64,000 bases of DNA from Obrimoposthia wandeli (lineage: Eukaryota), in contig CDROCS010000088.1 of the NCBI GenBank assembly GCA_977020255.1, forward strand, positions 124,001 to 188,000, read 5' to 3'. Under the pieces are notes generated by a model. That model made no database searches. It had not been told where the DNA came from and saw nothing but the letters and a program-made list of their open reading frames with translations. This document shows positions 1,770 through 33,353 of the stretch, piece after piece; the first letter of the stretch is position 1, and each line of letters opens with the position of its first letter. Both the position numbers and the translations under genes were made by a program.

Positions 1770-2458
1770 CTTATATTTAAAATTTTAAACGAATTAAATT
1801 CAAGAACATGCTATTTTTCTTTAAGATTAAAATATACCATACATCATTATGATATTTCATGTACCTTTGATAGAACAGTATACTGTACTTATCTAAAATA
1901 CGTGATATTAGTAAATTAAAATATCGTTTTTTATTTGTTCATTGTTTTAACGTTTACAAAATCAATTAAACGATGGATGACTTTTTATGATTTTAATAAG
2001 GGCAACTATTGGTTATTTTCATAGATACAGAAGTTTATTGCATATATATTTTTACGAAACATTAACAAAAATATTGCAAGACATCTACAATTTTGAATAA
2101 AAATAAATCGTTTCATAAATGGTAACTATCAAGAAAAGACAAAAACCCTCATATATACATTTAGATTTTCATAGTTCGAAATTTAAAAAAATAAAAACTT
2201 AGAAAATACATTAATAATTAAAAATATATAAATAATGATTATAATCTCAAAATTGTATTGCTTGATATTCACGATTTCATTAGCTATTAGCATGAGTAAT
2301 TTTACGGAACATCAGTTAATTTAGATCCACTTTCAAAGAATGCATTGAAATGTACAAATCTGTAATATTATTTTAATAATTTGTAAATGAAATTCTCGTA
2401 TTTCAATCTGTTTTTGCATTCAAATTTGAAGTTACAATTACTTTTCAATCCACTTTTA
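1770..2458. repeat. Left non-coding arm of a long inverted repeat (partner about 7965-8680)
   Basis: For example 1801-1930 and 2240-2455 are diverged reverse complements of 8510-8640 and 7965-8190. Confidence 0.85.
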
Positions 2459-3299
2459 GTGAAGTAGGGAATGTGGCACTTCAGGCACAAAAATGCTAGT
2501 ACCCGCCTTCGTCCGGGGGTATCAGAATTTTGAGCATAACTTCATCACTGGTTAGCACAACAACCGTATACACATTACGTAATTATTAGTTTCCATAGTA
2601 ACTGAATATATGTATTACACCACTACTGGTTTCCATAACAACCACTTGTGCATATTACATCTTCACTTGTAGAATTGATGATAGCTTCGTGTATTGCATC
2701 ATCGCGTATCACCATGTCAACCGCGAGTGTATTTCGTCATAAGCAGTTGCCATGGTCGGCATACGTCAAGGTTACCTAATTTTGGAAGTTGTTTTAATAT
2801 TTAGAATATGCATAAAATGTAAAATTCAAAAATTCAATATTTTTAAAATATTTAGAAATAATTAAGTTTTTTACATTTTAGATTCAATACTTAATTTGCA
2901 AATTTAGTTTACAATCTTTATGTAAGAATTTCGAATTTTTGTTTACATTTACAATTTTAATGTAAGAATTAATACTTTATTTTAGTTTACATTTACAATT
3001 TTAATACTTAATTTTTAGTTTATATTTAAGTGCCTAATTTCAAATTTAGTCTATTAATTATCAACTTGATTATGTTTTTATTCAATTTTTAAACAGTTAG
3101 GAATACTAATAAGAATAATTAAAATATATTAAACTTTAAATTATAATTAACATCACTATTTATTATAAACTATAAATTTAAAAGAACATAGTAATTAATG
3201 CAATTTTACACAGTTGCAAATAAGAATAAAATCAAGATATTATTTAATGTCAAAATATATTACTTACAATCACAAAGGAGACTATGAAAAGAAAAGTAC

Positions 3300-5420
3300 A
3301 AAAAAATAAAGCAATTTCGTCCGGGTATTTAAAGTGATCGAACGCAACTGATCTATTCATTTCAACCCACTTACGCTTATCATCAGCACTACTCCGTGCA
3401 ATTTTACTCAAATGGATTGTAAAAAGCTTATGATTTATTGAGCTTATGGGGTTTTGTTGTAATCGCTCGCTTATCCCAGTATGTTAGTTTGTTGGAGACT
3501 AATACAATTCGCTCTCATCTCTGGTTATCCTTCTGTAGTCTCTAAGTTATATGACTTGGAGTGTAGTTAAACAACCCCGTGCTCTCATCTTGAAATTTAC
3601 CTATCACTGTATTGCGTGTCGTATAAAGCGGATGATTTTCTAAAAATTTCTAGGTATCTAACAGCCCACCAGCAATCATAGCAGGTAACAATGATTCTTG
3701 AACATTTACATTATTACATTCCAAGAAAAAACTATCAGATTCATCCACTATAATTCTAATATCGCAGTTAAATTACACTCGATATTTCTCATACTGCATA
3801 TATTGCAACTCATAAATACTTAAATAACTAAAATCTAAAACTGCCTGACATATGTAACTAGGACGATCCAAATCGATATTTTCCTTATTTAGTAGAACTG
3901 CTATAAGGTATGTATTGATTTCGATTGTCCTACAAAAGTGAGCTTTACTACAATAGGTAACAAGCTTTTGTTAAGTATTACAAATCCAAAGGTTAATTGT
4001 TTTCATTAGATTCTCAATGAGTTTTCCAAATAAAGAATTTACTCTCAAAGAATCTGTGTAATAATTTAGAAAACACATTAGTTTGTTTAAACTGTACTGC
4101 TCTACATACAAAATCTACTTAAGCACCAAGTCTAGCACCAAATGCAAACCAGGTATGTAGAAGAAATTGAGTGGATCCAGTCCGTTGTCTGCGATGGTCT
4201 TGGTTCAGAATGCTGTAAAAACGTCAGCAAGCTAGTAGACGTCCATCTTCATATAGTCCCAGAGCAATGAGCAGTCGCTCTGAGTCCACACCTTCTTTGC
4301 CATATTGTACTCGGTCGGCTTGATCTACTATTTACATTTTGGTGGCGAACTCATAAAAGCGCAGATGGCAGTCTCTGACACAGCCATATTGTAGGATCAA
4401 ATTGTGAAAAATAACAGGAAAGGATCGGTTCAGTCTCCTTGATAAGTTGCATTTTAAATGTGCTGTTCCGAGCTACTCGCCCGTCATGTGATCGTGGTCT
4501 TGAACTTTTTATGTTACCCTCTTACGTATCTAACATATTGTTGCAACATTGAAACTCGATACCTGTATCAATGTAATTTGGTGCATCACCTCGATTGCAT
4601 GATTTTTATACCATGGGAGAACAACGTGTTTCGCCAAATCCTCCAGGTTTCGTAAAAAGGAATTAACACAAGATTCTTCGGTGAAAACCGAGTAATCGTG
4701 TGTGTATCCTTTCGTGCCTGCAACGAGAGAAATGACCACACCGGTCGCGATTGGGAGCTGAATCTGTTGGTGAATCCCATGTGGCGGCATCACAGCCTCA
4801 AAGTCCACGTAAACAGTAAAAGGAGAAATGGTCTCGGAAAAGTCTGAAAACTCAATTTGCTTATCTGTAGACATTTAATAAACTTATGGCACCAAGTACA
4901 GTGAATGTAATTGGATACAACTTAATTTATATAATTCAGAAACCTACTGAGCTTAGGAATGGCCACATAATGAAAATTGTCATCAATTTTTAAAAGAAAT
5001 AGGTTGATCGGTATAGCGTTTGGGTTTGTGGTCCTATAAATAACATTCACATAGGGGATTTTTGAAAAATCTATATATCTGTTTACACCTTCACGATCAT
5101 ATTGAAAGTAAAGACGTTGATTGAGATAGAAGAGTTCTTTCTCTCAAAATGCGGTATATTACATAGATGTATCGACATTTCATCTTCCGCACAAGCTAAT
5201 TCACTCAATATGCCATCATATTGATTAACCCGCTGAGGAATAATGCAAAATACTTCGCGAAAAAGTACAGCTAATATGCTGTATAGAAAGCAAAAGTTAT
5301 TAGCGTTCTGCACATTTATTACACAATGCGAGAGTGCTAACAATGGTGGAATAGGAATGTTACAACGAACGAAACCTCCAGGAACCTACTAAATTTGCAA
5401 TTATTCTCACACTGCTAGTA
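3300..5420 (-). pseudogene. Degenerate Polinton/Maverick-type protein-primed DNA polymerase B (near full length)
   Basis: Minus-strand motifs in order: VINVQNANNFCFLYSILA...FERKNSSISINVF; PFTVYVDFE (exonuclease); DHDHMTG..GTAH.KCN (endonuclease VII-like); LADVF; NSLFGK; RPSYICQAVLD; C-terminal SSADDKRKWVEMNRSVAFDH. Many stops, frameshifts and an internal deletion near 4398. Confidence 0.85.
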
Positions 5421-5829
5421 ATTCTTGATGTTTAATTAAATCAACTCCTGCTTCTAGAACATCTTAATCGAAGGGGAGTCCTTTATTTGAAAATTGTCAG
5501 GCACGTGTATCAGCTTCGTTCATCAATTCGACACGCACTCCGAATTGCACCTTACAAGTAATAAACTTTCTAATAAAACCCCGTTATTGGATGAAAATAA
5601 TATCTGAAACCACTAAATCAGGCATATTATCATTAGAAACTTGTAATGATTATGTTTCCATACTGTTTTGTTATCCCACCCTACACCTAACGCGATCAAC
5701 TCGAGAAAGTTTTTCGCAGTAGAGCTATCTGAAGTGAGCAAAACACTTTGCTCGCGGGTAGATGCTGGTAATGGTGCAATAGTGGGATCATATTAACATA
5801 TTCAGTAGAAGCTGAGATAGGACTGGAAC

Positions 5830-6760
5830 TTTTTTTGTTTATACTGTTCTGGGGGTCTAACCCTGAGCGTATTTTAGCATCTAATATTAATTTTTAGCAT
5901 TATTTTTTGGTTTATACTTTATTAGGTTCTGTTCCTTTATTTATTTTGTATTATGATGTTTTTTTCTGTTTTTTTTATAGAAGATCTTTTTTTTCATACC
6001 AACACTCTGTTAAAATTTTCTTGGTAATAGGTTTTCATTTATTTCAGCGTTCTACACAGTGGCATTTTTTTGGGGTATTGGCTTTTTTAATTAAGTTACC
6101 GGTTTTTGGTTTTCACCTGTGGTTACCAAAGGCTCATGTTGAAGCTCCTGTATTTGGTTCTATGATTTTAGCAAGTATACTTTTAAAGTTAGGTGTTTTT
6201 GATCTTATTCGTTTTTCTCAATTTTTTTTAGTTTTAGATATTTAGGTGGAAATATTCTAGTTCAAAAATTTTTTTTTACTTGGTGTTGTACTTAATTTGG
6301 TTTGTAGTCGCCAATATGATTTAAAGTCTTTTGTTGCTTATTCTTCAGTAGTACATATGGGTCTTATTTCTATTTTTTATTTGATTTGGTGGTTACTTGT
6401 CTCTTTTTGGTTCATGTTTAATTAATTTTTCTCATGCTTTTTGTTTTTTTTCTTTATTCTTAGGTGTTAAATGTTTTAATGAAATTTCAGGAACTCGTAA
6501 TATTTGATTAAACCGTGGGTTTTATTGGGTTATACCTTTATTGTTTTTTTTTGGTTTTTGCTTGTGTTGGTAATTGTTCAGCTCCTATTAGGTTGAATCT
6601 TATTTCTGAAATTCTTTGATGGGGATTTCTGTAAATAATATTCCATTTTCTTGAGTTTTTTTGTATTGTTTGGTTTCTTTTGGAAAGAAGGTTTAAAAAT
6701 CTAAAATTTGAGTTAGTAGCTTAGGTATTTATTATTTTAGTTTAAAATTATTGCTCCATT
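5830..6760 (+). pseudogene. nad4: NUMT: degraded mitochondrial NADH dehydrogenase subunit 4 fragment
   Basis: ND4 motifs [46 protein letters not shown] and QYDLKSFVAYSSVVHMG. Extreme T-rich strand bias, stops and frameshifts, embedded among nuclear repeats. Confidence 0.9.
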
Positions 6761-6944
6761 CTGTTGTTTTGTTGTATTTTTCCTTCAGTCATTGAGCTTG
6801 AGCTTACTGGAATATCCGTTGGATTATCAATTGGAATATGTATAATATCTCATTACTTGTGCTTTTACTGTTGAACACAAATAGATTTTATTAATAGAAG
6901 TTTATTTCCAACTACAAATATCCATCCAGTAATACTTGTGTCAA

Positions 6945-7870
6945 TCATTTCCAAGACCATTTCTCCTTTTACTGTTTACGTGGACTTTGAGGCTGTGCTA
7001 CCGCCACATGAGATTCACCAACAGATTCAGCTCCCAATCGCGGCTGGTGTGATCATTTCTCTCGTTGCAGGCACGAAAGGATACACACACGATTACTCGG
7101 TTTTCACCGAAGAATCTTGTGTTAATTCCTTTTTACGAAACCTGGAGGATTTGGCGAAACACGTTGTTCTCCCAAGGTATAAAAATCATGCAATCGAGAT
7201 GATGCACCAAATTACATTGATACAGGTATCGAGTTTCAATGTTGCAACAATATGTTAGATACGTAAGAGGGTAACATAAAAAGTTCAAGACCACGATCAC
7301 ATGACAGGCGAGTAGCTCGGAACAGCACATTTAAAATGCAACTTATCAAGGAGACTGAACCGATCTTTTCCTGTTATTTTTCACAATTTGATGGAACACG
7401 ATATGCACTACACTTAAGCATGCGCTGAGTCAATTTTCGCACTGGAGTATCTCTTTCATTTCTCAATCGACAGAGAAATTTCTAGCTATGCTCATGCATA
7501 TTGAAGGAGTTTGTATTTGGTTTATCGACTCTTTACAGTTTTTGAACAGCGGAATCAAGAAACTAGTCAAGAATCTGGGTGTCACTCTTCTGACACATTC
7601 CGTCTTTCCACAACATCTGGTAAGCAACAATGGCATCTGTTCCTACGATATGGCTGTCAGAGACTGCTATCCGCGCTATTACGAGTTCGCCACCAAAGTT
7701 GAAATGGAAGACCAAGTTGACCGAGTACGAGATGGAAAAGAAGGTGTGGACTCAGAGCGACTGCTCATGGATGAACGTCTACCAGCTTGCTGACGTTTTT
7801 ACAGCATACTGAACCAAGGCCATTGCAGACAACGGACTGGAGCCACTGAATTTCTTCTCCATACCTGGTT
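6945..7870 (+). pseudogene. Second Polinton-type pPolB fragment, inverted relative to the 3300-5420 copy
   Basis: PFTVYVDFEAV, DHDHMTG..GTAHLKCNL..FPVIFHNL, WFIDSLQFLNSGIKKLVKNL and LADVF. Reverse complement of about 4147-4840 plus about 250 bp (7393-7640) absent from the left copy. Confidence 0.85.
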
Positions 7871-7964
7871 TTTTTTTTTTATATATTTCACTAAGTAAAT
7901 TTAATAACTTTTAGTAATGTATTTATAAGTAAATTTTCGTTAATTAATTTTTGTAAAGGTTTTA

Positions 7965-8680
7965 TGCTAAAGTGGAGTGAAAAGTAATTGTAACTTAAAA
8001 TTTGACTACATAAAAAAACAAATTAAAATAAGAGAATTTCATTTAGGAATTATTAATATAATATTACAGAATTGTACATTTGAATAAACTCTTTGAAAGT
8101 TGATCAAAATTAACTGATGTTCCGTAAAATTTCTCATGCTAATAGCTAATGAAATCGTGAATATCAAGTAATACAATTTTGAGATTATAATCCTTATTTG
8201 TATATTTTTAATTATTTAAATTGTATTGTATAAGTTTTTATTTTTTCAAAATTTCAAACTATGAAAATATAAATGTATATGAGGTTTTTTGTCTTTTCTT
8301 GATAGTTACCATATATGAAACGATTTCTTTTTTATTCAAAATTGTAGATGTTCTGCAATTTATTTGTTACTGTTTCGTAAAAATATGTACGTAATAAAGT
8401 TCTGTATCTATGAAAATAACCAATGGTTGCCCTAATTAAAATCAAAAAAAGTCATCCATTGTTTAATTGATTTTGTAAATATTTAAATGTACAAATAATA
8501 AAATATGGCAAAACGATATTTTAATTAACTGATATCACGTATTTTAGATAAGTACCATAAACTGTTCTATCAAAAGTACATGAAATATCATAAATTATGT
8601 ATGGTATATTTTATTCGATAAGAAAATTAGCATGTTCTTTGTATTTAATTCCTTCAAAATATATATTTTAAATATAAGGA
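7965..8680. repeat. Right non-coding arm of the long inverted repeat (partner about 1770-2458)
   Basis: Diverged reverse complement of 1770-2458. Confidence 0.85.
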
Positions 8681-17399: not shown

Positions 17400-20190
17400 A
17401 AAGGATGACCTAATAACTGCCGTTTTAAACCTTTGCCAGAAGCAGCGTCTGATCTTCTCTTATTAATGCACATCTTGCGTCTTCTAATTCCTCTATCGAT
17501 AATTTTTCCAACTGTCTTTCTAATTTTGGAACTCGACAGTTTTTTACGAATATATTTTTCCAAGTTCGTACTCTAATCAGTCTTCTCCAATCTGAAAAGG
17601 TGTCTGTACTGAATGCGTCTGTTTGTCTCACATAGGTTCTATCTTTCGTGGTTTTGTTAAAAAAACAAGGCACCTTCTTTCGTTCAGTTTTTGATTCTTT
17701 CGTATTTATTTTTTTATTTCTCCTGCTTTAAAAATTCTGGTCCTTCCCACCACATTCTCGACTTTACCAATTCTTCTACATTTATTCCTCGGGATAGTAA
17801 ATCCACTGAATTTTCTTTGGTAGGAACATACTGCCATTAATTGTTTGTCTATGAATATTGGATACTCTATTTGCTACAAATGTTTTATCCAGCTCAACGT
17901 GGTCATGATATCACTTCAGAATGTTATTTGTTTCATTTCAATTTTTAACGCTTCCGCCACTTTTCTTCCCATGGTTAATCCTACACAAGCTGCTATTAAC
18001 TCCAACCTTGATAGACATATTGTAGATATGGGGACTACCTTTGCTTTCGCTATTACTAATGTATTGCGCACTTCCTCTCTCCGTTCACAAGCATAAATTA
18101 CTGCTCCATAAGCTTTTATTGAAGCATCTACAAAATGTGGTAATCTGTCACTGATTTCTCAAATATTTTTAAACATCGATTCATTCGTATTCTGTCTAAG
18201 TATAAACAATCGTCGCTCCATTTGTTTATGGTAGTTGTTGATTTTTCATCCAATTCATCGTCTCAATCTGCTGCACTTAACCATATATCTTGCATAATCA
18301 TCTTTTCCTTTATAGTAAATGCACTCACCATTCCTATTGGGTCATATAATCGTTCTATGAGACTGAGAAATGTGATATTAAATTTTAAAAAATTCCTCAT
18401 GCATCTCATTTCACTCCTAATGTCTTCGTTGTTACTTCATCTTCTTCTTCTATCTTCCATTCGGTAGCTCGCTCATCTTCAGGTACAGTCTTCATCAATT
18501 CTTCGCTATTGGTTAACCACTTTCGTGTTTTCATTCCTGCTGCAGCCCACACTTCTTTTAACTCATACTTCAATTTTAAACCTTGTTCGAGTGTGGTGAC
18601 CGAATCAATACTACCATCCATATAGGTAGAATATAATATTGTTTCAACAGCTCTCGGGTACTTCTCTTGGTAGCTTCTAGCATTCTCTTGTGTGATCAAC
18701 TGTGCCAGAAAAGAGATGTATTTAAACCAAATACCAATCGGTTGAACTCTAGTTGCCGCACCTTACCATCTATCCACCATAAAAATCTAAGATACGGTTG
18801 ATCTTCTTTTGCAACCTGTTTCTGTAGGTACATATCCTGAATGTCGCATGTCAATGCTACTGGGTGCCGTCGGAATCTTGCTATATTGTTATCAAGTCAC
18901 CCTGGAGTTTTGGACTACATTCTAAAGCATCATTCAAACTCATTCCGTACACTTTTACTGCTGCGTCAAATACAATTCTCACTTTTGAGGTAATTTTATC
19001 ATTATGTACCATTGGGAAGTGCGGTAACAACCACTTTGTTTCCACTTCATTCTTTTCTTCTACTACTCTAATATACCCCTTCTGTAAGTGGCCTTTTATT
19101 ACTCGGGTATATGCTTCTTCTAGCTGATTATCCCGTTTAAAACGTTGTGTCAAATTATCCAATATTATTTTCGCCATTTCCTGACTCTTCTGTAATTTAT
19201 CTTTTTCTATCTTCCAAGGTAATTTTACCCGATACATCTCGCCATCGTACCTCATATTTTCTTTTGTCATCTGTAATAATTTATTGTCTTCAGTAGATAT
19301 CTTGGTTTTCTCCAGTTCTTCCTCTACCTTCCAAAAACGTTGAAGTGTCTGATCTAGTTGCTCATTACCTTTAAAATACGTCCTTATGAAATTAACCTGC
19401 TGCCGCTGGTCTACATCAACCTTCCTTACACATGTCCACCCGAGTGGAGTTAATCGTGCCACTGGCTCTCCCTCTCGCCCAGCAATCTCTCTCAATACCC
19501 GATGTGTCCACATACAATCGGCTCCTATAAGTACGTTCACCTTCCGCATTCTTCTATCTTTCTGAGGAAATTTTATCTTCCTGAGATGTGTCCCCTTTTG
19601 TACCTCATCTACCCACTCATAAACTTTCAAGTCACCGGTCAAGTTATTTACTGTGAGTGCATCTAGTTGCATTCTCTCCAAACTATCTACCCCTTTCACT
19701 GTTAATGTCACCGAGGTGGTGGCTATTTCGTGTACTCTACCTCCGATAACACTGACTGGTACTGTCTGTCTTGTACCTTCTGCCTTCAATGCCTTCGCCA
19801 CCCAACTGTTGACGTAGCTGGTGGTGATACCATCATCTAATAGCGCATTTACCTGCACTGTTCTTTCCCCATTTCTGAGGACGACTGGCGCGATCCTCAA
19901 TGTAATTACTTTGCTCTTTCCACCTAACTTAATGTGGTTTGTGAATTTCACCGGTGACATTGTGCTCCTCTTCCATTCCCGATGCACCAATAAGTGGTGC
20001 TTTGTTGGATATCCAGCCACATTACAGAACTTCCTTAACTTGCATTCATTTGCCTGATAGCCTTCATTGAGACAATTAAAACAGAGCACATTCTTTCTTA
20101 CGAACTCCCACATCTCGTCCAAATGCAAGCTCTTGAACTTCTCACATTGACTCAAATAATGATTTTCTCCGCATTTTCGCAACTCTTCTT
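17400..20190 (-). mobile_element. pol: Degenerate Bel/Pao retrotransposon: gag zinc knuckles, protease, RT, RNase H; integrase deleted
   Basis: CGENHYLSQC...LCFNCLNEGY..C...HHLLVH; ALLDDG; LPHFPMV...KVRIVFDAA...SLNDAL; RFRRHPVALTCDIQDMYLQ; TYMDG; YDPIG; FVDASIKAYGAV...SRLELIAA; FSDWRRLIRV...LSIEELEDA. It then jumps to FWQRF and the PPT with no DDE core. Confidence 0.92.
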
Positions 20191-20629
20191 CCACGTTGTT
20201 CGCTGATCTTGGTGTCAATGTGAATTCTATAATCACTTTCTTAGTCGTAAACACATTGGAGTTTTGATGCAGTTCTGCAACTAATGTATTTCCATCGAAG
20301 TATGACACTCTATGACACTCTAAGTTCGCACAGAAATTCGTTTGTTAGTGCATCTTTCACAATGACTTCTTTCGCCACATCTGTTGGGTGTTTTCTTTCG
20401 AAAACGACTATGATCTCTTCGTCTTCTTCTAATATGTCTTGTGGTGCGATGTGTCGGATTACTTCTTTTTCATCTTGGTGCTTCATTCTGAGCATACCAA
20501 TTCTCACTGGATCTTTCCAACATTGTTGACAATATACAAGATTCCTTCTTTTATCGAGTATTTTTTCGTCATTTCATCGTTTAGATCTCCTTTCAATAAC
20601 ATTTCTTTGATTAGACTCAGTTCTTCATC

Positions 20630-21335
20630 TTATTTCTGTTCCTTGATGATCTCTTTGTCTATTTTACCCGTCTTCAGCAAAATCGTTAGTAGATTTGCTT
20701 CTCCTTTTTGGTCGTTGACTTCATCTTGACCTTCTTCTGGAATTATGTTTCCTTTCTCGTCTACATTTATCAATCTCGACAAACAATCTGCATTGCCATT
20801 CGACTTTCCGGTTCTATAACGGATTTCTAGATCAAATTCGGCTAATTTCAGAAACCATCTGTTTAATCTACTCATCTCGACTCTATGTTTATACAAGAAC
20901 TGTAGTGGTTTGTGATCTGTATACAGGAATACTTTTTGTCTTAGCAAGTAGTGTCTGTACTGTCTACATGAATATACTATGGCTAGACATTCCTTTTCAA
21001 TAACAAAGTATCCTCTTTCAGCTCTGTTTAACCCTCTACTCGCATACGCGATGACGTGTTCTCTTCCTTCTTCATCATCTTGTCCCAATACTGATCCTAC
21101 AGCATAGTTACTTGCATCTGTCATTAGTATGAATTGTCGGTTTATATCTGGAAACGCTAATATTGGTGCTTTTATCAGTCTTTCCTTTAAATGCTCGAAC
21201 GCTTGTTGTGCTTCTTTTCCCCATATGAACTTCTCATTTTTCCTCGTCAACTTTCTCAATGGTGTTGCTATATCTAAAAAATGTTCAACAAATCGTCTAT
21301 AATAGTTTGCAAGACCTAAAAAACTCTGTATTTCC
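20630..21335 (-). pseudogene. pol: Gypsy RT connection and RNase H
   Basis: IQSFLGLANYYRRFV, LIKAPILAFPD, LMTDASNYAVGSVLGQ, VIAYASRGL, EKECLAIV, YTDHKPL, RWFLKLAEFDLEIRYRTGKSNGNADCLSR. A small deletion or frameshift near 21340 separates it from the RT ORF. Confidence 0.95.
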
Positions 21336-22050
21336 TTAATGTGCTTTTACTTTCTCGATCTTTGCTGGATCAGGTCGGATGCCTTCTTTCGATACTATAT
21401 GTCCTAAAAATGTTACTCGCTCTTTAGCCCATTCGCATTTTGTAGGTTTAACTTTTAATTTAGGGTTTTCCAGTCTTTTAAATACAACTTCAAGATTTTT
21501 TAAATGTTCTTCGAACGTTTTAGAAAATATTATTATGTCATCGATATAAACCGTCGTGTTTGCACATGATGCGAGTACAAACTTCATGCAACGCTGAAAT
21601 GTTGCTGGCGCTCCTGTCAGTCCGAATCGCATTTTTTCGCATTCGTATAGTCCATCTCCGCAGGAAAAGGCTGTTTTGTGTTTATCCTCTTCCTCTATCT
21701 CGATTTGCCAGTATCCACTCTGCAAATCTAATGTTGTAAAATAATCTGAATTACCCAATTTATCGAGCATCTCTTCGATTCTAGGTAATGGATACACATC
21801 TTTTCTTGTGATCTTGTTCAGTTCTCTGAAATCTATACAGAATCTCATTTTCCCATCCTTCTTTTTTACCAACACCACAGGTGCTGAGAATGGCGAAAAA
21901 CTCGGTCTAATTACTCCTGTTTTAGACATATCTTCGATCTGACTTTTTACTTCATCTTGTAACTGTAATGGTACTCGATATGGTCTTCTTCTGACTACTT
22001 TGTCTTCTGTCAGTGGTATTGTATGTTTTATGACAGGTGTTTCTCCTATG
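21336..22050 (-). pseudogene. pol: Gypsy reverse transcriptase core
   Basis: VIRPSFSPFSAPVVLVKKKDGKMRFCIDFRELN, YPLPRIEEML, LDLQSGYWQI, FGLTGAPATFQR, VYIDDIII, FLGHIVS. Confidence 0.97.
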
Positions 22051-22509
22051 TCATATGGATTTTTTGCAATTACTTTTGGAAATTTATGTATTAGATCAAG
22101 TAATTGTTTCTTTTCTCTAGTTGTCAGTCTTTCTGATTGGATTACTATTTCTTCGTAATCATTCGTATCTTTATCGAGTTTCATAGCACACACAGTGGGA
22201 TTCTCCATCTGTGCTATCTTTCCCAACCTCATTCCTCTGTATAACAGGATGTCATTGTTGGTTGTATTCATCAGTCTAACTGGTATTTTGTGGTTTTCAA
22301 TCAGACATACTGTACTCACAATTGGTAATTCATATTTATTTATGAAATCCCGTGATTGTTCGAACACAACTGGTCCTTTATCTTCTGATAATGTGTGACC
22401 TTGAATTAGAAATTGTGATCTTTTACCGATTTTTATAGGATTTTCAATAATTACATCAATTTGGTTTATTTGTCTGTTTGATGTACTATCTTTCAATCTT
22501 GGATCTTGT

Positions 22510-22820
22510 AAATCAATACTTATCCCTTTGAGTTGTGATAGTACATCCATTCCTAAATTTGTAGGTTCAGGACATTCTTTCATGATTCTAACTGATATAG
22601 TGATCGTATTACGTCCAATTATAAATGTACATGTTAATATTCCTGTCACTTTTACATGGTCTCCATTAACCGATACCAAGAATTCATCTGGTTCTGCCAT
22701 TGTTTGTTTCGTTTCCTCTATCAAACAATCTTCACTTACTATCGAAACTACAGTACCTGTATCAATTAAGGCTTTTACTCTTAAATTATTTACTCTAATG
22801 ATAGCTGCTGGTCGCTGTGT
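22510..22820 (-). pseudogene. Aspartic protease 2 (canonical pre-RT position)
   Basis: VKALIDTGTVVSIV...LGMDVL retropepsin motifs. Confidence 0.9.
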
Positions 22821-22899
22821 TCCATTTATATTTCCCATATGGTATATCGTATTTATCGAATTATTACATTTTGTCGGTCCATTGTTTGGATAGTGAAAT

Positions 22900-23045
22900 C
22901 TAATATTTCTCACTTGTCGATCTATTATCTTTCTACAAATTGGACATGTTACCTTTCCCTTCGCACATCTCTGGCATGTTCTCACATGTCCACATGGTAA
23001 AAAGGCAACTTCTACTTTGTTGACCATACAAACTGCGCATTCCGG
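22900..23045 (-). pseudogene. IAP-type C3HC4 RING finger
   Basis: Hand translation CAVCMVNKVEVAFLPCGHVRTCQRCAKGKVTCPICRKII. The F.PCGH..TC..CA....CP.CR pattern is typical of IAP RINGs. Confidence 0.9.
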
Positions 23046-23109
23046 ATCTTCTAGTATGCATTCTAGTTCATTTATGTACTTTTTCTATTTTGTTTCAATT
23101 GTACTGTCA

Positions 23110-23500
23110 TCTTTATCTCGTAGTAAATCGAAAATTGATCCGTATCCATTTCATGTAGTTTATATTTTTAATTCCACCAAATCTCTGATTCTTTCTACTT
23201 CTTTTGGATATAGTCTTCTCACGAATGACACTACCGGTGTGTCTTGTTGAGCCAAAATCTCTTTCTGTGTGATTTGGTATTCGACTATACATTCAGTTTT
23301 CTGTTCTTTTTGCTTTATTTTGTTTTTAAAAATACAAAACTAGCAAAATTCATGATGCAAAGTTTTCTTAGGTAACTCAAGAGTATATCTGTCGATAATT
23401 CGTTCTTTTTTACACTTGTGGCATTTAATTACGTCTTTACCATCCTTTTTTTATAGCAAAAAGTCCCTTTTTTGCTAATTTTTTAAGTCTTGGATATTCG
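23110..23500 (-). pseudogene. Degenerate second BIR repeat plus IAP-like UBA segment
   Basis: Hand translation across a frameshift and stops: LAKKGLFAIKK/DGKDVIKCHKC...TLHHEFC*FC (BIR-like), then PVVSFVRRLYPKEVERIRDLVELKI...GYGSIFDLLRD, which resembles the XIAP/cIAP UBA region. Confidence 0.55.
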
Positions 23501-23689
23501 AAAGTTACTTCTCAATATTGTTCGTCACATTCGTTTACTTCTCGCATTACTTCGAATATGTCTTCAATTCGACTATTTGTTATCACCCTGCCTATTATTT
23601 GAGCTTTTTCTCCTTCTGGAATCTCATCACTGTTGTCGAAGTCGGGTGCTTTCCCAGTTTGAATTTCTGGTTCATTTGCAGTTCTCAAT

Positions 23690-23900
23690 TTCAGGAGGAA
23701 TGGACATGTTGGTGTTTCTCTTTTATGACGTTTCATTGGGTTATCATTGTTTATCCAATTTCTAAACTTTACTCTACAATATACGCATCGTACTACTTTC
23801 TCAGAACCAGAATCTTTTGTCGTGTCTCCGTTTAACATTTGTAAACCCGTTCTCGCCATTTTGCGTGACATTTCTTTTGAATAGTACGGTTCTAGTGACC
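23690..23900 (-). pseudogene. BIR (baculovirus IAP repeat) domain
   Basis: MARTGLQ...VVRCVYCRVKFRNWINNDNPMKRHKRETPTCPF has the C-x2-C...W...D.P...H...C zinc-binding pattern. Confidence 0.88.
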
Positions 23901-24149
23901 TTCGTCTATTTCTCTCGATTCTAAAAGGATCTGTTTCTGATATACTCTTATATGTTATTTTCCTCCTCCCCATGGCTTGTGGTCCGTTGTCTACTCCTTT
24001 GTAGTGAAGTATCAACTTTACTAACACTTCCTGTTTCCTGTTACGGTACGGATTTCCCATGCGGAACCTAGTGTATTTTTCCTTTTCAACTGTAGGTCCT
24101 CTCAACATCTTTATCTCTCTCACTGAACTGTTGTTATTTAAACTCTTGT

Positions 24150-24470
24150 TGTTTGGTAATATTATTATTCCTTCAAACATTCGTATTACGTCCATCCCAA
24201 TCATGACTGGACTACCACAATCTGTGAATATTCTAGCATTTAACTGCAATGCTCTTCCATCGATAGTTAACTTACATTTCAGTGTTCCTTCTGATACTAC
24301 ATCTGTACCATTTATATTAACAAATGTTTGTTTTCTAGGACATACTTCTCCTAATTCTTTTGATGACAAGATTTCTTTACTCAGTACTGATACTGCAGAT
24401 CCAGTATCAACTTCGGCAAGATATTCTCTTCCGTTCAGTGTTACTGCTACTTGTGGTGGAGCATTCGGAT
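24150..24470 (-). pseudogene. Aspartic protease 1 (extra protease, in frame after the env TM)
   Basis: VTLNGREYLAEVDTGSAVSVL...VMIGMDVI retropepsin motifs within ORF 23512-25869. Confidence 0.9.
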
Positions 24471-24819
24471 TCTCATTGAATATCCTAGACTTCAGAATTC
24501 TTCTGGAATTATCTTTTTTGTCTCTTTCCTCTGCTTGTGGAATCTCACTGTAGTTCACTCTAGGCCATCTTATCATTAAAATGCCTCCCTTGAACTTTTT
24601 CTTCTCTTCCTTTAGTTCCTTCATTGGATATAGGTTTAGCGCCACTTCTTCCTTGTCTGGTAACGGAATCTTTGGTTTTCCTGTATTTGGTATCTTCGCA
24701 TATTCTCTTGGACTATCGTTATCATCGTCGTTGTCGTCTCGGTAGGTTCTTGGTTCTCGTATCATGGTTCTCGTTTGATGTTGCTCCTTCTTGAGGGCTC
24801 GCAACTCGTTCTCATGATG

Positions 24820-26623
24820 ATGGTGCATTAGATATTTCGCTAAAAATGGGAAACATCCAATTATAAGCTGCCAGGTGATTCCGGTTATCCTGTATAAACT
24901 ATACGTAGATAACACCTGGGCTATAATTACCTGCACAAATTTAATTATAACATAAATACCTATGATACCTGAAAATAATTGTCCTAAAACAAGGAATTTC
25001 CCCCACATCTTTCTAAGGGTCTGATGTGCTGCTTCCTTGAAATGACTTGGCGACAATAACATATCAAAATTCGCATATCTAGCTCCTGGCGGTAATGCAC
25101 GATGTACCATCTCCGTAAGTACTCTGGCCCTTCTTACTGGAAACATTATTTCGTTCCAGACCGCTTTTAAGTCTTTCTCATTGTACAAACCTGCATTTTC
25201 CATATTCTTTACAGCTTCGAATTTCATTTTTCCTTTAAGAGTCGTCATTTTTATCATCGTTGTAGTTGTTGTTTGCTTCCGGTCAGGTCGAGTTATCCAT
25301 AGATTATTCGTCATCTGATATTCAGGTGCCATTATATTAGAGCAGCTGATTTCTTTAGTTGGAGTGTCTTTTGGAAGTATCATTCTCGTGATTGGTTCAA
25401 CAAAAAGCGCTTTTAAATTATACGTTACTGCCAATTCACTCGTACATCGGTCTGTTTTTCTCAACTGTACTTCTACTTTTTTACACTTGTAAGTATACAG
25501 CACCTCTCCCATGGTTTTAGCAAATACTCCTTCATCTAAGGGTATTAATGGTGCTACCATGTCTGGATTCGTAATAGCTAATGCTAACTTTGTTCTTACG
25601 ATCTCTTTGTTTAACTGGCAATCTTTCTCAATCATCATCCGATATAACTGTTCCATTTGCATCAATCCTTTATGATAATAAAAATCAATTTTATTATTAA
25701 AATACGTGTGTAGCTGCATATCTCTAGGTTTTAACTTGGTTCCTGCCAATGCTATTGATTCTCCTGACAAAACTATTCCCGGATAGTTTGTAGTACTAAC
25801 AGTCATTCCGCATCGCGCTTTATTTCTCTTTTTAATAAATATCAATCCTTCTTCTGTTGATGTTGCCATTAACAGTGTAGGTGTCGGCGTCGTAGGAATT
25901 GGTCCTGTTGTGTTATGAAATCATTCTCCACCTTTATTATACAGGAACCCTTTTATTTTATTAAATTTAATCTCTTTCAAAAATACTAAAGAGCATTGTT
26001 TTGGATCGGCGTGATGTATGGCAAGATGTATCTGTCAATCTACATTCCGGATACTTCATCATTCGTTTTGTATTTTTATCAAAATGGGCGGTCCATGTTT
26101 TTAATTCGATCTGGTAAGTTACGTCCATTACCAACTCTGTTACTTTAGTACCACGCATGTTTTTTGTTCCTCCGTCACAAGATCCATCAGCCCATCGTCG
26201 TCCTACTCTCGTGACTGTTTCGTATCGTCTCACCCCAATTTTTACATCAGGTTTGTAATTCTTATCTATTTCTATTTTTCCTGTTCGAAATACGTCTTTG
26301 CAATCTCTCGGAAAGACCTTGTGTGGTTTGTACGGTGTGGTAGTTGTGATTTCCGACATAAAACTTCTATGACCACAGTAAAATTCGTGATAACTTGAAT
26401 GAACTGAACATTCCTTCACTTGTACCTGTATTTTATCAACATCCTGATACACAAAATAGTTTTCAACACCTTTAATTTCTAATTTTGAGGGTTGTGATTC
26501 TGGACAGTCTTCGCTGTCAAGCAGTGAATACTTTTGTCCCATCTGTGTTACACTACAGTCGTATGCTACTAACGCTGATGCCTGTTGCATTCCCATAAAC
26601 ATCACTAACATCATCATCATCAT
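24820..26623 (-). pseudogene. env: env-like chuvirus (Jingchuvirales)-type class III fusion glycoprotein with signal peptide and C-terminal TM
   Basis: MMMMMLVMFMGMQQASA signal peptide, then LVAYDC...YSLL...C...C.V..YCG..S...C...TG...GSCDGG. After a frameshift (about 26010) and a stop (about 25920): CG...YFNNKIDF...QMEQLY...KDCQL...LALAITNPD...GVFAKTMGEVLYTYKCKKVEV.LR.TDRC.SEL.V...FVEPITR...C, then hydrophobic WGKFLVLGQLFSGIIGIYVII. The cysteine and motif order matches chuvirus G and retroelement gB-like envs as I know them. Confidence 0.85.
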
Positions 26624-27750
26624 CGTTGTGGACCTATTTGGTTGATTGATCTTTCTTTCGGACGGTATTGTTTATTTTCTCTTTGACGATTCTCATGACA
26701 TTGTTCATCATCGTCTTCATTCATTTCCACAATGGTTTTAGCGTGGTCACTTAATTTTGCCCAGCCTCCGTTTTCGTCAATTCGTCGCTGCAATACGTTC
26801 TCGATCAGATACATCGCTTCATTTATTCCTTGTTTGACTTCGTGAAGTTTACTCGTTCTTTCCGTCAATTGGAAACATAGATTTTTATTTGTAGTCTGGT
26901 TTCCACATAATCTCGCTAAAACTTCGCCATCGTAAAATCTATCTATTGATACATGGTATCCTTGATTCGCAGTCATTCTCTTCACTGCAGACATTTGTGC
27001 TCTAACTGCTCTAGTCAAATTGTCTGTTATATCGGTTGTTTCATATTTGTACATTTTGAACAACTTCGGCTTTACTTGTCTGAGAATTCCCGTAAGTATA
27101 TCTTTACTACTTGGAGCTTCCGAATTCATATCACCCCTGATATCTTCATTTCGCTCTGCACTATACTGCTCTAATGACGCTGCTAACTGCCCAATGCTTT
27201 GATGTCTCTCCTCATCAGTTTGAGGTGCAGTTAGAACATTTTGTAATAAACTTCCGTTCTTTCTAGATCTTCCAGGTCCTCTTCGAAAATACTGATACTC
27301 AGTTTGATTCTCACCTAGATCATACGGTTTATCATTATACCGTACCTCTTGACTTGGTACTGCTACATGACCAATCTCCTCGTTTTGTCGCATCGTCTGC
27401 TCTGCTTGTCTATCTCTGTATGCGGCATGCCAAATTGGTGAATCTAAATCTACAATCTCGAAGATTTCGTCTTTTCCAACTAGTTCGGTTACGTTTTCGT
27501 TTTGTCTTACTTGGTTAGCTATATCCGTGACTTCATTTTGTCCGGTTTGAATTATCTCTTGCTCTAATGGTACTTCAACTACCAGATTCGTCAATTCATT
27601 TTTTGGTTCCACGTCCTGTAGTTCAGCTACGTTTGGTTCAGGTGTGGACGTCTTGTTTCAAGCTTCAGCTACATCATTATTTCCGCTTTCGCTTGAACTG
27701 TCTAAACTTTCTATAGGCGTTGTTATCATATCTAACGCAAATTCAATATC
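26620..27750 (-). pseudogene. Unassigned polyprotein segment between the Ub-like domain and env
   Basis: 330-aa ORF plus upstream in-register codons. Acidic N-terminal part and helical C-terminal part. No motif recognised. Confidence 0.6.
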
Positions 27751-27786
27751 TCGGTCAATCCTTCATTATCTACTAACTCCTGACGT

Positions 27787-28017
27787 CCTACAGTGATGAC
27801 ATCAATCTTTTCCTCTAATTCGTTTCCTATCGGATATCCGCACTTGACTGGCACATCTTCATCATCTAGTGATCTTCCTTTATAATGGAACAACATATTC
27901 ATTCCATCTATTTCAAGTTTCTCGGTCAACGTTTTTCGAATAGTTTTCATTGTTTGGTATACGTTGAGTTTTTCATGCATAATCTGTCCGGAAATTAATC
28001 GAAGTGAAATTTTCATC
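27787..28017 (-). pseudogene. SUMO/ubiquitin-like domain in the polyprotein
   Basis: MKISLRLISGQIMHEKLNVYQTMKTIRKTLTEKLEIDGMNMLFHYKGRSLDDEDVP...IDVITVG aligns by eye with ubiquitin and SUMO (F.Y.G..L.D.D.P......IDV). No C-terminal GG. Confidence 0.7.
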
Positions 28018-28363
28018 ATTCCTTTTTGATTTGATCTCTGTACGTAACGACCATATCCTTTCAATAATCCTCGTGATACGTCTTTGTAAATCAAGTTATC
28101 ATGACTATGTTTGACCAATTCTGCTCGCACTTCTTCCAATCTGTACACTTTAATTGTTTGTAGTTTGGCCAAAACTTCTGGAGCTTCACTCGCTTCGTTT
28201 AGCGGTTGATTCAACGTCTTTTTAGCTTCACTAATTATCTTTTTCACATTTTCCAGACTCTTAGCATTTCTTGCTGCTTCTATGTGATCAGTCATAGGTT
28301 GTGCGTTACACGTTTTCTCAATTGGTGTCTCATGCGCTTCTAGTATTCGGTTCATTAAATCAT

Positions 28364-30515
28364 TCATCTCTTCTCTCGAGTGTAGATTTTTTCTTTCGAC
28401 AACGTAGATGAATTCGCCATCTTTGTATGCGGTGAATCTTTAATTATTCCCAACATTCGTTCAAATTTACTATCACTATCTTCAAAATCTATTTCGCGTC
28501 GAAGTTCGGTCTCGCGATTCCTATCGCTGTCATCATTTACGTAACTAATATTTATTTTCGGTTTCGGCGAACTCTCACGACTATTTGTCTTGTCAACATT
28601 ATTATTATTATATCTACCGGAATTATTATATCTCTCAGCTCCTTGCTGTCCTACGTAATTATTGTATCTCTCAGCTCCTTGCTGTCTGTCTGCATAATTA
28701 TTATATCTGCATGGTGACTGTTGTCTATCCGTATATTGATTATTCGGTCTCCATTGCGGCGGAGTATACCCACCACCTCTATTCCATGGCGGGAGTGAAT
28801 TATATCCTCTATAATTATTTCCAAAATTATTATTTCCGAAATTATTATTTCCAAATCTGTTAGTTCCGAATTCTTTACTTCTCGTACAATCTCTCGAGTA
28901 GTGACCCATTTGTTTACACGTATAACACATTATTCTCCCTCGAATATCTATCTTATTTTGTTCATCTTCGAACTGGACTCGACAACTATTCTGTCTATTG
29001 TCATAGCGTCCTCTAAAATCCTTCGGAAATTCGATTCAAAACTGCTTTCTCGATTATTGAATCTTCCGTCACTACTTCCTGCATTATTTCCAAATCGAGA
29101 GTCATTTCGCTCTCCTCTGTTTGCGTTATAATTCCTATCGTCTCCTTTCCATGGTTGGCGATTTCCTGAATTATCTCTACTAAATCTATTTCTGGAATAA
29201 TCTCTATTTCGGTTCCACGAATCATTACTACTTCTACCTCTTGAATCGTTTCGATTCCTGTTCCAAGGCTCGCTATTATTTCTACCCCTCGAATCATCTC
29301 TATTTCTACTTCCGAAATTATCTCTATTTCCGTTACTGGATTCATCTCCTTTTTCAAACTTATTTTGTCCATAATTTCGATTCTGAAAATTACTCGGTTC
29401 TGTCTTATTCACAAATACCTTTGTCTTATCGTCATCACCTGCGATCATTGCGTAAATTGCCAATGCTGCGTTATTTTTTATATTTTTCTCAATTTCTCTC
29501 GCTTTTCGCACGGCGTTATCAAAATCATTTGTATCCGATACTGCCAATAACACTTTAATATCTTTTTTCAGTCCTCCTCTGAATATATCTAACAAGACTT
29601 CTGCCATTTCATTTTGGTTCCGTTCATCTTTCGATGTTTGTGCTTCTGGAGCTACAGGTTCACCTTCCAAATTTCTCACTATTCTTCTTGGGTGCGCTCG
29701 TGCGGCCAAGGTTCTCAAAACATACGCGTATTCATTCACGCTTTCGTCATGTTTCTGTTTCCGTTCTCTCATGATTCCTTATTCACTTTTGCTAAGTCTC
29801 CCAATACCAATTTTCCAATAAAAGCACTTTCCAACGTTTCCCAATTTAAACGTTCTGCTTATGTCAAATGTTTATACACTTCAAGTGCTAATCCGGTCAA
29901 ATGTGCCTGTACACGGACACATTTTTCTCTATCGTTCCATCCTTGAACATCTGCGCAACTCGAATATTCTGCGAGGAAGTCACAAATACTTTCCTCGTCT
30001 CCTTTAAACTTTGTAATCTGCAATGATCCCGAAAAGCTGGGTCTCAATGTCGCATTCAAGGCTTGTGCCAACTGTTCTGCATTCATTCCTCCTACATTAT
30101 TTCCTGGGTTATTACCTGCTTGAGCCATATTTTCAGCTATATTCTCAGCTATTTCTTCAATATTATCCAATTGAACTTCCTCAACCGCTACTGGATTGGC
30201 AATTTCAATTTCTTTTGGGTTTTGAACTTCAATAATTTCAATTTCTTCTTGGTTTATTTCACCAAACAATTCAGTCAGATCAAAACTGTCGGTTGAAACT
30301 GCTGATTGATTAACGTCTCTTTCTGATACGTTTTCTTCGGTTCTAGCTTCTTCTATTACTTTTTTATCTATTTGAGAAACCTGTTCAATTCGGCTAAAAT
30401 TATTATTATTTATCTCTTCCTGTGGAATCTGACTTTGTCTTCTAGTATTAAACGCGGGTCCCTTTTTATTATTCGTTGTTTTATCAATTATGTATTTGTT
30501 GACGATATCAATTTA
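28364..30515 (-). pseudogene. gag: Gypsy Gag: capsid domain, low-complexity regions, CCHC zinc knuckle
   Basis: KFKGDEESICDFLAEY...WNDREKC...LTGLALEVY; ERKQKHDESVNEYAYVLRTLA; DIFRGGL...FDNAVRKAREIE; CYTCKQMGHYSRDC at about 28886-28927. Frame is open from about 30515 but no ATG seen. Several stops and frameshifts. Confidence 0.9.
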
Positions 30516-30947: not shown

Positions 30948-30965
30948 TCCTCACTCGGGGCACCA
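30948..30965 (-). promoter_or_regulatory. Primer binding site, elongator tRNA-Met
   Basis: Minus strand TGGTGCCCCGAGTGAGGA is complementary to the 3' end of metazoan elongator tRNA-Met (...UCCUCACNCGGGGCACCA, from memory). It lies 8 nt after the LTR ...CCCCAACA end. Confidence 0.85.
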
Positions 30966-31563
30966 ATTTGATATGTTGGGGTTTCTACATGAAACTGTTT
31001 TTCTATATAGATCCTCTGAATGGAGGGCCCCAACGTGAGTTCTATAGAAGCAGGACTTGTAGATGTTTGTGGCCTACTTAATGTTATGCTTGCCTGTCTC
31101 AATTCTTATCTGAAGGTTTGTTGTTTCTTAATTTGAAGGGTCTATAACAACGCTTTCTAGTTGTAGGAAATCGTTTATTACTATGCACACTAAATTAACA
31201 CGTCTAAGTACGTTCTAAAAATTACAATACAATTTCTAAGACTTCCGTAAGTCTCTACACAAGTGAGGATGATCCACGTATCGATTTTACTTTTAGGGTT
31301 GGTTGGTCGCTAGAGTCTTTACTCTAAAGGTGGCAACGTTAAAGTGATAGGTTTTCGGAGAGCTATTTACTCTAAAATAGGGATTGAGTTTCGTAGAACT
31401 GTTGCTCTAAAATAATGAACTGAATTTAGAGAGCTTATTCTCTAAAAGGGGGATGGAGTTTAGTAGAGCTGTTGCTCTAAAAATATAGGCAAATATGGGT
31501 TAAGTTGAGCGAGCTGTTGCTCAAAATATGGATTGAATTTATTCACTCAAAAACTTTTGTCAC

Positions 31564-31795
31564 AATTCAATTCAATTTTATAAGTTTAATCGATTCAAAA
31601 CTTTACGTGTTTATCAGGTCGATTTACTTTCTAATTCAAAATTCAAAACTTCAATACTTTTGTTAAAATTCAATTAAATTTTATAAGTTTAATCAATTCA
31701 AAGCTTTACGTGTTTATCAGGTCGATTTACTTTCTAATTCAAAATTCAAAACTTCAATACTTTTGTTAAGATTCAATTCAATTTTATAAGTTTAA
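31564..31795. repeat. 103-bp tandem repeat x2.2 within the LTR
   Basis: Units at 31564 and 31667, partial at 31770. Confidence 0.9.
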
Positions 31796-31919
31796 GTTGT
31801 CAATTTTTTATTGACTCTCACCGTTCTCTGAGATTTTAGGGATGTCCTCTCGTCGGTAGTGATCCTCCGTGGTTTCTTCGCGCGGTATCCTTAGTCCACG
31901 ATCAATTCCTTTAGACAGC

Positions 31920-32118
31920 CTCTGGTTCCGTTTTGGTTGCGGTTAGTTTTCTGGCGAATTGAACTATTAAAATTGCTCTTGAATACAATTTCTCACCTCT
32001 CTTCTCGGTCGGCGAGTTTCTTCCTGAATTCGCTCTGGCTCTGTTTTAGTTGTGGTTAGTTTTCTGGCGAATTGAACTATTAAAATTGCTCTTAAATACA
32101 ATTTCTCACCTCTCCTCT
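31920..32118. repeat. 113-bp tandem duplication within the LTR
   Basis: ggttagttttctggcgaattgaactattaaaattgctctt...caatttctcacctctc at 31941 and 32054. Confidence 0.88.
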
Positions 32119-33353
32119 TTCCAGGACACTAATGGGATTTTGTTGACTCTGTCTGTTGACTTTGAGCGTCTGCTAACGGACTGTCTCCTAAAATGTAAAT
32201 GATTGCACTTAAAATTAAGTGCTCTTACTTAATGGCGGGATTCCGGCTGTCGTGTTTTCAGTGCTTCTCTGGAGATAGACCTGCTTACTGGCGTCGCTAA
32301 TGGATTTTCTTCTTCTTTCTTGTCTTTTTCTGATTAATTGGTATTCTCTTCTTCCTAATTGTCTCTTGCTGGCCTTATCAATATCGAATTTTCTTGGCTA
32401 AATTCTTTTTTCGGATACCTCTTTTTGGGGCCCTTTACTTTAATTTTAACCTCTATATATATCGCACACTAAACATGACCTTTCAAGGTCCTAATATTTT
32501 TCTACAAAAACTATATTTAATTTCAATTTTAATTTATATTTAAAATTAATTTAGTCTATATTTAACCTTGCTTCAAGGATTTTTATTTTAGTATAAAATC
32601 AATTAATTATTCAAAATTATTCAAAACCTAATCCTAACACAATCATTTAAAGTATCTGATACAATTTCTAACCAATTTCCCGCCAAAATCTATTTTATTT
32701 CTAATTTAGTATGTAAGTTTAATATCATGGGTCAATGAGACAAATATCCATCACCAAACCAAAGTTATGGAACATATGTAGGTTGGTAGAAAGTCTCCAT
32801 ATTTGAACACTCGATTAAATGTGAAAATATTAATAGGCATTTTACTATTGATGAGTTCAGGGCCATTCATAAAATTGTCAGAACTATTTTGAAAGAACAG
32901 TGTGTGAGGCTTTGAGTATAAAAGAAAACAGTCCTTCATTAAACATAAAAAGGATTGCTTAAAATTGCTAGAAATATTTTAGCAGGATGCATATTTTTTG
33001 GATGTTGCGCAATGCCACCGCCAGAATATTTAATGACATATTTTCCTTTTACACCAATGCTGATGAAATACTCGAGAAATACTCAATATAAAGAGTGAAT
33101 CTATTTATTTATAGGTTTGAATTAAAATAAACAAATCCTTAACTTGTTAACTTGATTATTTCATTTGAAAAATGTTTTGTGAAGTTTCAATATTAGCGTC
33201 ATAGAAACGTTGTTCGTTGTTGTGCCTGTCGCAAAGAGAGAAGCTGTAGTTGTATGAGCTGGATCTAGACCAATCCGAAGCCGGGAGAATATCATTGGCG
33301 GTTCAAGAGAGCAGAAGAAGAGCGGGTCGGGTGGGTAGCAGATCAGACCTGCC

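Follow-up and report, generated by a model that had tools for sequence, protein, structure and literature searches.

By the textbook account, retroviruses and LTR retrotransposons carry a single protease gene, and the assembly of Gag-Pol sets the time at which it is activated (PMC8794111). The closest described systems to the element reported here are Burro/GYPSM1, planarian giant gypsy-like LTR retrotransposons with in-frame env, BIR, BCL2-like and ubiquitin-like cargo; the text of PMC6431247 names a single PR. A further group comprises the GAG-ENV-POL errantiviruses with gB-type env from Nematoda, Bryozoa and Platyhelminthes. The main text of the report on these (PMC13524379) has one mention of protease and none of apoptosis or BIR, and offers no analysis of multiple proteases or of cargo. 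Our literature searches, which did not reach Burro's primary description or figure, found no multi-protease layout in print. The element type and its BIR cargo are already published; new are a clade-wide multiplication of selected retropepsins around a swappable cargo site, and a Maverick-type IAP at that site.

The window, which is the whole stretch of 64,000 nucleotides analysed, carries a decayed LTR retroelement on its minus strand (~32640 to 20210). The family it belongs to is a Burro-like Gypsy element of ~22 kb, present in high copy number and with the order gag-env-PR1-IAP-PR2-RT-INT. In the window copy, the parts follow each other as LTR, PBS-like site, gag, ubiquitin-like, BCL2-like, env, PR1, BIR1, second BIR-like, UBA-like, RING, PR2, conserved spacer domain, RT and RNase H:

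30974..32640, minus strand: 5′ LTR, approximate and diverged; matches both termini of two other copies
30949..30965, minus strand: PBS-like site, starting TGG just inside the LTR end CA; read from the sequence
28367..30512, minus strand: gag in pieces, with one CCHC knuckle (Pfam zf-CCHC, E 1.7e-6)
27735..28100, minus strand: weak ubiquitin/SUMO-like domain (another copy matches Pfam ubiquitin at E 0.045, and the corresponding stretch of relative P0036 does so at E 4.4e-5)
26700..27290, minus strand: weak BCL2-like domain (BLASTP E 2.8e-5 to a region of P0030 with Pfam Bcl-2 E 0.0015)
24800..26671, minus strand: env, chuvirus/gB-type fusion glycoprotein (PF24664, E 5.5e-72 and 2.6e-24), broken near 26000 and 25923
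24613..24633, minus strand: late-domain-like word YPx(n)L, within the cytoplasmic tail of env
24154..24465, minus strand: PR1, retropepsin behind the env tail (Pfam, PR2 alignment, copy survey, AF2, Foldseek)
24103..24117, minus strand: candidate cut word EIK/ML between PR1 and IAP, predicted from a word scan; kept in 39/40 and 18/20 copies
23695..23877, minus strand: BIR1 (PF00653, E 6.3e-11)
23110..23500, minus strand: second BIR-like domain followed by the UBA-like region, disrupted in the window copy (CxxC..H..C spacing in other copies; weak cIAP1 UBA match)
22896..23048, minus strand: IAP-type RING with tail (zf-C3HC4_3, E 1.3e-11; cIAP1 6hpr, E 7e-12)
22842..22859, minus strand: candidate cut word SIN/TI between RING and PR2, predicted from a word scan
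22509..22817, minus strand: PR2, retropepsin in front of RT (Pfam, trees, copy survey)
22200..22470, minus strand: conserved domain that follows PR2 and precedes RT, called dUTPase-like solely from its position (a label taken from PMC6431247); pN/pS 0.05
20834..21869, minus strand: RT and RNase H, with a frameshift near 21340 (RVT_1, E 3.5e-37; RT_RNaseH, E 1.1e-36)
20210..20630, minus strand: remnants around the integrase, whose core is deleted (~20510)

Owing to stops at about 25923, 23514, 23342, 23162, 23153, 23087 and 20632, and frameshifts near 26650, 26000, 23450-23490 and 21340, PR1 and PR2 lie in different frames in the window copy. Env has a signal-like N-terminus and a single strong transmembrane (TM) segment by hydropathy (~24966-24910). 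A Pfam scan gives no direct match for the BCL2-like region of the window, and a Bcl-2 search of the genome for the element's BCL2-like domain returned host-like exons instead.

The likeness to Burro/GYPSM1, as far as the text of its description goes, covers one giant ORF; gag, possibly the ubiquitin/SUMO-like and BCL2-like domains, and a mononegavirus-like env in frame between gag and pol; then BIR, PR, RT, RH and INT, with high copy number and decaying copies. The ubiquitin/SUMO-like and BCL2-like domains before env are a Burro/GYPSM1 trait for which the element yields weak matches only. Burro/GYPSM1 exceeds 30 kb, whereas our element measures about 22 kb between LTR ends. The ankyrin and MATH cargo of Burro/GYPSM1 had no Pfam match in five frames of element copies. 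Because it is shorter and lacks ankyrin or MATH matches, we call the element Burro-like and not one of Burro-1 to -4. Set against the Burro/GYPSM1 text, the element differs in having a full BIR-BIR-like-UBA-like-RING IAP between two proteases, and two DSPc domains after the integrase. With the errantiviruses, in the portion of PMC13524379 consulted, it shares a Ty3/gypsy pol, LTRs, a PBS and many copies; we found the PR-RT-RH-INT order, a PF24664 env between zf-CCHC and the proteases, LTRs, a PBS-like site and multiple copies. The env of Smed_errantivirus_1, taken from that paper's supplement, looks alike to the element env by eye.

The first-pass annotation had placed two DTG proteases around an IAP cassette, and both motif sets lie where it put them: EVDTGS (24414-24397) and IGMDV (24201-24187) in PR1, and LIDTG (at 22769) and LGMDV (22556-22542) in PR2, all on the minus strand. 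Both match retropepsin Pfam families, PR1 with Asp_protease_2 (E 2.6e-5, over the cut-off) and PR2 with gag-asp_proteas (E 2.5e-4) and RVP (E 6.6e-4). Their similarity, also proposed there, is borne out by an ungapped alignment with 30/104 identical residues (29%, E 2e-15). Each has a D-T/S-G triad and a G-x-D motif before the C-terminal helix, with D, G and D invariant in our alignments. The AF2 model of PR1 shows a retropepsin fold (mean pLDDT 74), and its best Foldseek matches are the Ddi1 RVP and the EIAV, FIV, XMRV and HIV proteases (prob 1.00). Both are predicted proteases of the retroviral fold, PR1 by its modelled structure and PR2 by Pfam. PR1 starts about 130 residues past the end of the env hydrophobic region, and PR2 about 27 past the RING tail. 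The IAP cassette between them can be refined to BIR, second BIR-like, UBA-like and RING domains.

Copies elsewhere in this genome preserve the arrangement. The whole cassette is spanned by 37/41 DNA matches, window included, at 90-100% identity; all 150 PR1 matches scored (of 19,828 candidates) are at least 94% identical; and PR1 follows env in 30/30 env-seeded loci. Two copies of about 21.8 and 22.2 kb are enclosed by paired LTRs that are 93-96% identical. In natural copies, env, PR1, IAP, PR2, RT, RNase H, integrase and two DSPc phosphatase domains form one open frame. Open frames around env reach 5301 codons, and frames from gag to PR2 and from the BCL2-like domain to INT were also found. 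A copy survey covered 40 env-seeded copies, which are the best env scorers and therefore favour long frames. Four of the top 30 env matches were left out of it: three that had already been sampled, and copy L119, where a deletion begins at PR1 and takes out the IAP, PR2 and the start of RT. A single open frame from TM to RT is present in 6/40 env-seeded and 0/19 DNA-seeded copies, and the RING runs on into PR2 in one frame in 32/40. PR1 is present with DTG in 40/40 env-seeded copies and in 18/20 of the others; the PR2 DTG is kept in 37/37 covered env-seeded copies and 18/20 of the others. The IAP occurs without PR1 in 0/40.

Selection was assessed as pN/pS over 60 copies, counting alleles present in three or more. 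Shared-allele values were 0.07 [0.01-0.16] for PR1, 0.12 [0.02-0.36] for PR2 and 0.02 for RT, while private changes in the same 60 copies gave 0.5-1.0. PR1 and PR2 were under purifying selection while the element family spread. The concern that PR1 might be missing or inactive in better-preserved copies is thereby answered in the negative, PR1 being an in-frame part of the element whose DTG is kept in every env-seeded copy. Within the cassette, the values were 0.09 for BIR2, 0.07 for the UBA-like region and 0.14 for the RING; BIR1 reached 0.44 and the linker before it 0.55. BIR1 with its flanking linkers is the fastest-changing block of the region, which may reflect relaxed or diversifying selection, or block exchange, and hints at conflict with a host death pathway. 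The same block (window 23600-24100) is a divergence island, with 81-86% DNA identity between subfamilies; by domain, identity is 81% for BIR1 and 94-97% for PR1, BIR2, the UBA-like region, PR2 and RT. The two DSPc domains after the integrase, in the same frame in other copies (L129:3329-10000, L133), are absent from the window copy.

Relatives were sought with env residues only, admitting proteins of 1833-5833 aa, a search that favours cargo-rich elements; it returned eight, and a protease search added P0003 and, via its cluster, P0028. All ten have two to four retropepsins after env (two or three in 8/8 of the env-found), and a BIR or RING had no Pfam match in any of the ten. Their first-to-second protease segment spans 59-385 aa and holds spacers, C2H2 fingers, ankyrin repeats or unknown segments; in five, the spacer between proteases is 59-124 aa. 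Four (P0001, P0031, P0034, P0035) have a third protease after the integrase. In P0001 this is followed by a further TM-bearing domain. The first protease of P0036 reads DTA, not DTG. Two to five retropepsins in tandem also occur in proteins that have no env (P0002, P0016, P0008). Since IAP-free relatives carry two or more proteases, the second protease is not tied to the IAP.

The same genome holds a sister gag-env-PR-RT family (L190-L197) with one protease in 8/8 loci and with neither PR1 nor IAP. It pairs with the window element's family in the env tree (89/93); the RT tree brings out no sister of the window element's family. This simpler, multi-copy family has three CCHC knuckles and serves as a natural control. 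Its single protease means that a second one is not essential for an env-anchored Pol, and the earlier proposal that PR1 is what frees Pol from env is to that extent not supported. A search for further env families gave only the window element's family among 30 loci examined, and two homologue searches and a metagenome scan found no match for the PR1-BIR region.

The protease tree groups PR2 with pre-RT proteases (83/82). PR1 falls outside the relatives' accessory protease clade in three free trees (90/86, 98/99, 97/99), the first leaving it unplaced and the third, with other outgroups, putting it weakly among pre-RT proteases. AU tests do not reject PR1 and PR2 as sisters (p-AU 0.31 and 0.28), and a tree joining PR1 to the accessory clade stands 1.08 log units above the free tree (p-AU 0.53). 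Because they rest on 116 columns and PR1 has a long branch, these trees do not place PR1; co-entry of the IAP with a protease duplication, as the first-pass annotation had suggested, is therefore neither proved nor excluded. Profile scores of PR1 are 58 bits to pre-RT and to post-env profiles alike, although leave-one-out controls separate cleanly. PR1 is without the C-terminal word common to the relatives' extra proteases, so the protease-flanked slot of the window element may have arisen separately from that of its relatives. A GIL motif found before accessory proteases lies 30 residues further upstream in the window family, a weak match given no weight here. PR1 may also have been captured in frame, long ago, from a different Gypsy lineage.

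Two analyses of PR1 were set aside. One tree tied it to unrelated proteases (97/87), but a search with PR1 itself had supplied the outgroups, and the grouping was lost with others; the profile score against the same outgroups was discarded as biased. We also dropped the notion of PR1 as an independent duplication, since the AU tests reject neither PR1 with PR2 nor PR1 with the accessory clade. Separately, bacterial-looking retropepsin-like ORFs (L145-L149, L253-L262), possibly from contaminant stretches in the assembly, are presumably of the membrane-linked aspartyl protease type.

The element IAP combines a BIR with CCHC zinc ligands and an IAP-type RING. IAP RINGs generally need a free C-terminus. 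In the element, the RING lies inside a polyprotein and its C-terminus would be free only after a predicted cut; alignment to the cIAP1 6hpr terminus sets the canonical RING end at the F of RNIRF. Most of the genome's best BIR matches are free ORFs that belong to two repeat families. These free IAP ORFs adjoin A32-type ATPase, rve integrase, DJR capsid and pPolB genes, a set that we take to denote Maverick/Polinton elements. They are colinear with the element IAP from BIR to RING, at 35% identity overall and up to 58% in the RING, and have the tail RVRN(I/V)(R/K)FH in common with it. They differ in being free-standing ORFs whose stop lies five residues beyond the canonical RING end, and the ORFs listed beside them include no retropepsin, whereas the element IAP is flanked by two. 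On sequence grounds, the element IAP was likely taken from a Maverick/Polinton-type free gene and fused in frame into the slot, the direction from free gene to element being drawn from the stop codon that closes the Maverick RING; the searches recovered no host RING-IAP to compare. The link suggests that a retroelement and a DNA element sharing one genome have passed genes between them. The DUSPs of the element and of Mavericks are only 30% identical, which gives no hint of a special link. Maverick/Polinton-type elements that occur in high copy number and carry a free IAP gene include L240:4377-7122, L242-L243 and L246-L247; one type has a DSPc gene beside the IAP, and in some elements the IAP-DSPc block is inverted and repeated about 10 kb apart.

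Candidate cut words were compared with Ty1, whose sites have Val/Ile at P2 and P2′ and hydrophilic P1 and P1′ (PMC6952103, in the part consulted). SIN/TI (slashes mark cuts) resembles the Ty1 site VPTIN/NVHTS given there and occupies the position of TIY/TI before the sister family's single protease. Matches to the Ty1-like word, a post hoc and loose pattern, occur just after PR1, just before PR2, before RT and after the integrase; they total 10 against 4.6 in shuffles, and 4/10 fall inside the RING, PR2, dUTPase-like core or INT. A looser hydrophobic-x-small-hydrophobic word lies just upstream of 16/28 clade proteases (5.9 expected) and also at several domain borders. No cut word was found within the 26-residue window before the PR1 triad. 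The RING had been thought to need release at its C-terminus by a cut near F/HY/P: cleavage would indeed be needed if the RING works like a canonical IAP, and a cut after the F is possible, but the best Ty1-like, retrotransposon-like word lies elsewhere, 15 residues further on.

We favour a reading in which PR1 and PR2 form the ends of a cargo slot, each cutting at its inner flank and together freeing cargo and Pol from the env anchor; we judge the considerations for and against it to be about evenly balanced. The reading is advanced because both triads are kept, purifying selection acted on both, the parts share one frame, the same layout surrounds other cargo and the IAP has Maverick homologues. 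Env would be threaded into the ER through an internal signal and a single TM; by hydropathy it has one strong TM here, and a second, weaker segment passes the threshold in 2/9 sequences. The tail-PR1-IAP-PR2-RT-INT chain would stay cytosolic and membrane-anchored, and would probably be cut from Gag by signal peptidase, so that protease activation could not rely on Gag-Pol packing alone. With one protease held by clustered env tails and another by RT, processing could remain efficient as cargo lengthens the chain. The predicted cuts are EIK/ML after PR1 and SIN/TI before PR2; the freed IAP would extend about 15 residues past the canonical RING end, with possible further trimming at F/H or Y/P. 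Against the cargo slot, the predicted IAP tail is 10 residues longer than in Maverick IAPs, the sister family manages an env-anchored Pol with one protease in all eight loci, one relative's first protease reads DTA, and PR1 is without the accessory C-terminal word. Such a slot would give giant elements a mechanism to gain and swap host-control cargo, and two to four selected retropepsins in one membrane-anchored chain pose the problem of what sets the timing of processing where env separates Gag from Pol.

Several other readings were weighed against the cargo slot. One capture event, for example by two template switches in reverse transcription, could have brought the IAP together with a duplicated protease, a cut at F/H or Y/P freeing the RING tail and PR1 releasing the IAP and Pol. 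The sister family, partner in the env tree, is missing both PR1 and the IAP, no copy among the 40 has an IAP without PR1, PR1 and PR2 are not rejected as sisters by the AU tests, and the free trees keep PR1 outside the accessory clade; moreover, F is the canonical RING end, and Y-P is kept in 37/38 and 20/20 copies where Maverick IAPs have S-I or G-I. However, the ten IAP-free relatives with two or more proteases (8/8 of the env-found) make an IAP-linked event unnecessary, the closest IAPs found are free genes in Mavericks, the tree with PR1 in the accessory clade scores above the free tree, conservation of the entire RING tail renders that of Y-P unspecific, and free Maverick-type IAPs tolerate five extra residues. 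We consider such joint entry unlikely. That PR1 is a dead passenger, or a fragment of some other element nested here, had its one support in the tree with unrelated proteases; as this grouping vanished with outgroups not fished by PR1, as no Pfam-detectable gag or RT remnants lie beside PR1, and as PR1 is in frame, present in 40/40 copies and under purifying selection, we find it scarcely credible. A specialised PR1, remaining at or close to the env tail to trim it or else cleaving host proteins, with routine processing left to PR2, would fit the grouping of PR2 with pre-RT proteases and its retention of the sister family's upstream word, the long PR1 branch and lack of such a word in the scanned upstream window, a constraint on PR1 today at least equal to that on PR2, and the other host-directed cargo of the element. 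Release of PR1 is nevertheless possible through a looser word, GIL/MI, about 45 residues before it, and we hold such specialisation to be highly unlikely.

Alternatively, the PR1 and PR2 of a single chain might join in a tethered heterodimer, with the cargo looped out between them, allowing processing straight after translation, without particle assembly, and early anti-death release. Modelled together in ESMFold2, PR1 and PR2 score 0.73 (runs 0.73, 0.73 and 0.70) against 0.00 for the best of 3 controls; the runs share at least 84% of contacts with partner pLDDT of at least 70, and the DTG triads meet as a composite active site. The mark was reached by 51/78 solved and 2/108 mismatched pairs (39/65 and 2/126 in eukaryotes). 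Spacers of 59-124 aa in five relatives would permit pairing in cis. Engineered tethered HIV-1 protease dimers exist (PDB 1hvc and others), likewise two retropepsin domains in one chain; these have identical subunits and a short artificial linker, whereas PR1 and PR2 are natural, 29% identical and about 450 residues apart, with cis pairing proposed. In HIV-1, stronger dimerization leads to premature processing, and early activation cuts particle yield (PMC8794111, in the part consulted), which would be costly for an element that must package Pol. Because retropepsin dimers have been solved many times and close cousins pass, the model indicates compatibility only; its score may show likeness alone, and it cannot tell which member of the protease family binds. 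Relatives with three or four proteases also misfit a simple pair, and we regard the tethered pair as quite unlikely for this element. Its clade-wide form, in which two different retropepsins pair in one chain and loop out swappable cargo (IAP, ankyrins, zinc fingers) for release at the membrane without particle assembly, would make of the slot a self-excising delivery cassette for host-control proteins, partly stocked from Mavericks; we think this doubtful.

YPx(n)L words resemble ALIX-binding late domains. The strict form is present in 6/12 env tails against 1.05 expected, and the Y-P pair in most. At its 3′ end, the window element abuts a Bel/Pao-like piece, with a DUF1758 match in the ORF at 18881-20344; this gag-PR-RT fragment (window 17900-20200) has its own protease-like motif and adjoins the truncated element. 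Farther along the window, positions 1775-8666 hold long nested inverted repeats with arms of up to 452 nt (97%), foldback or DNA-transposon-like in character.
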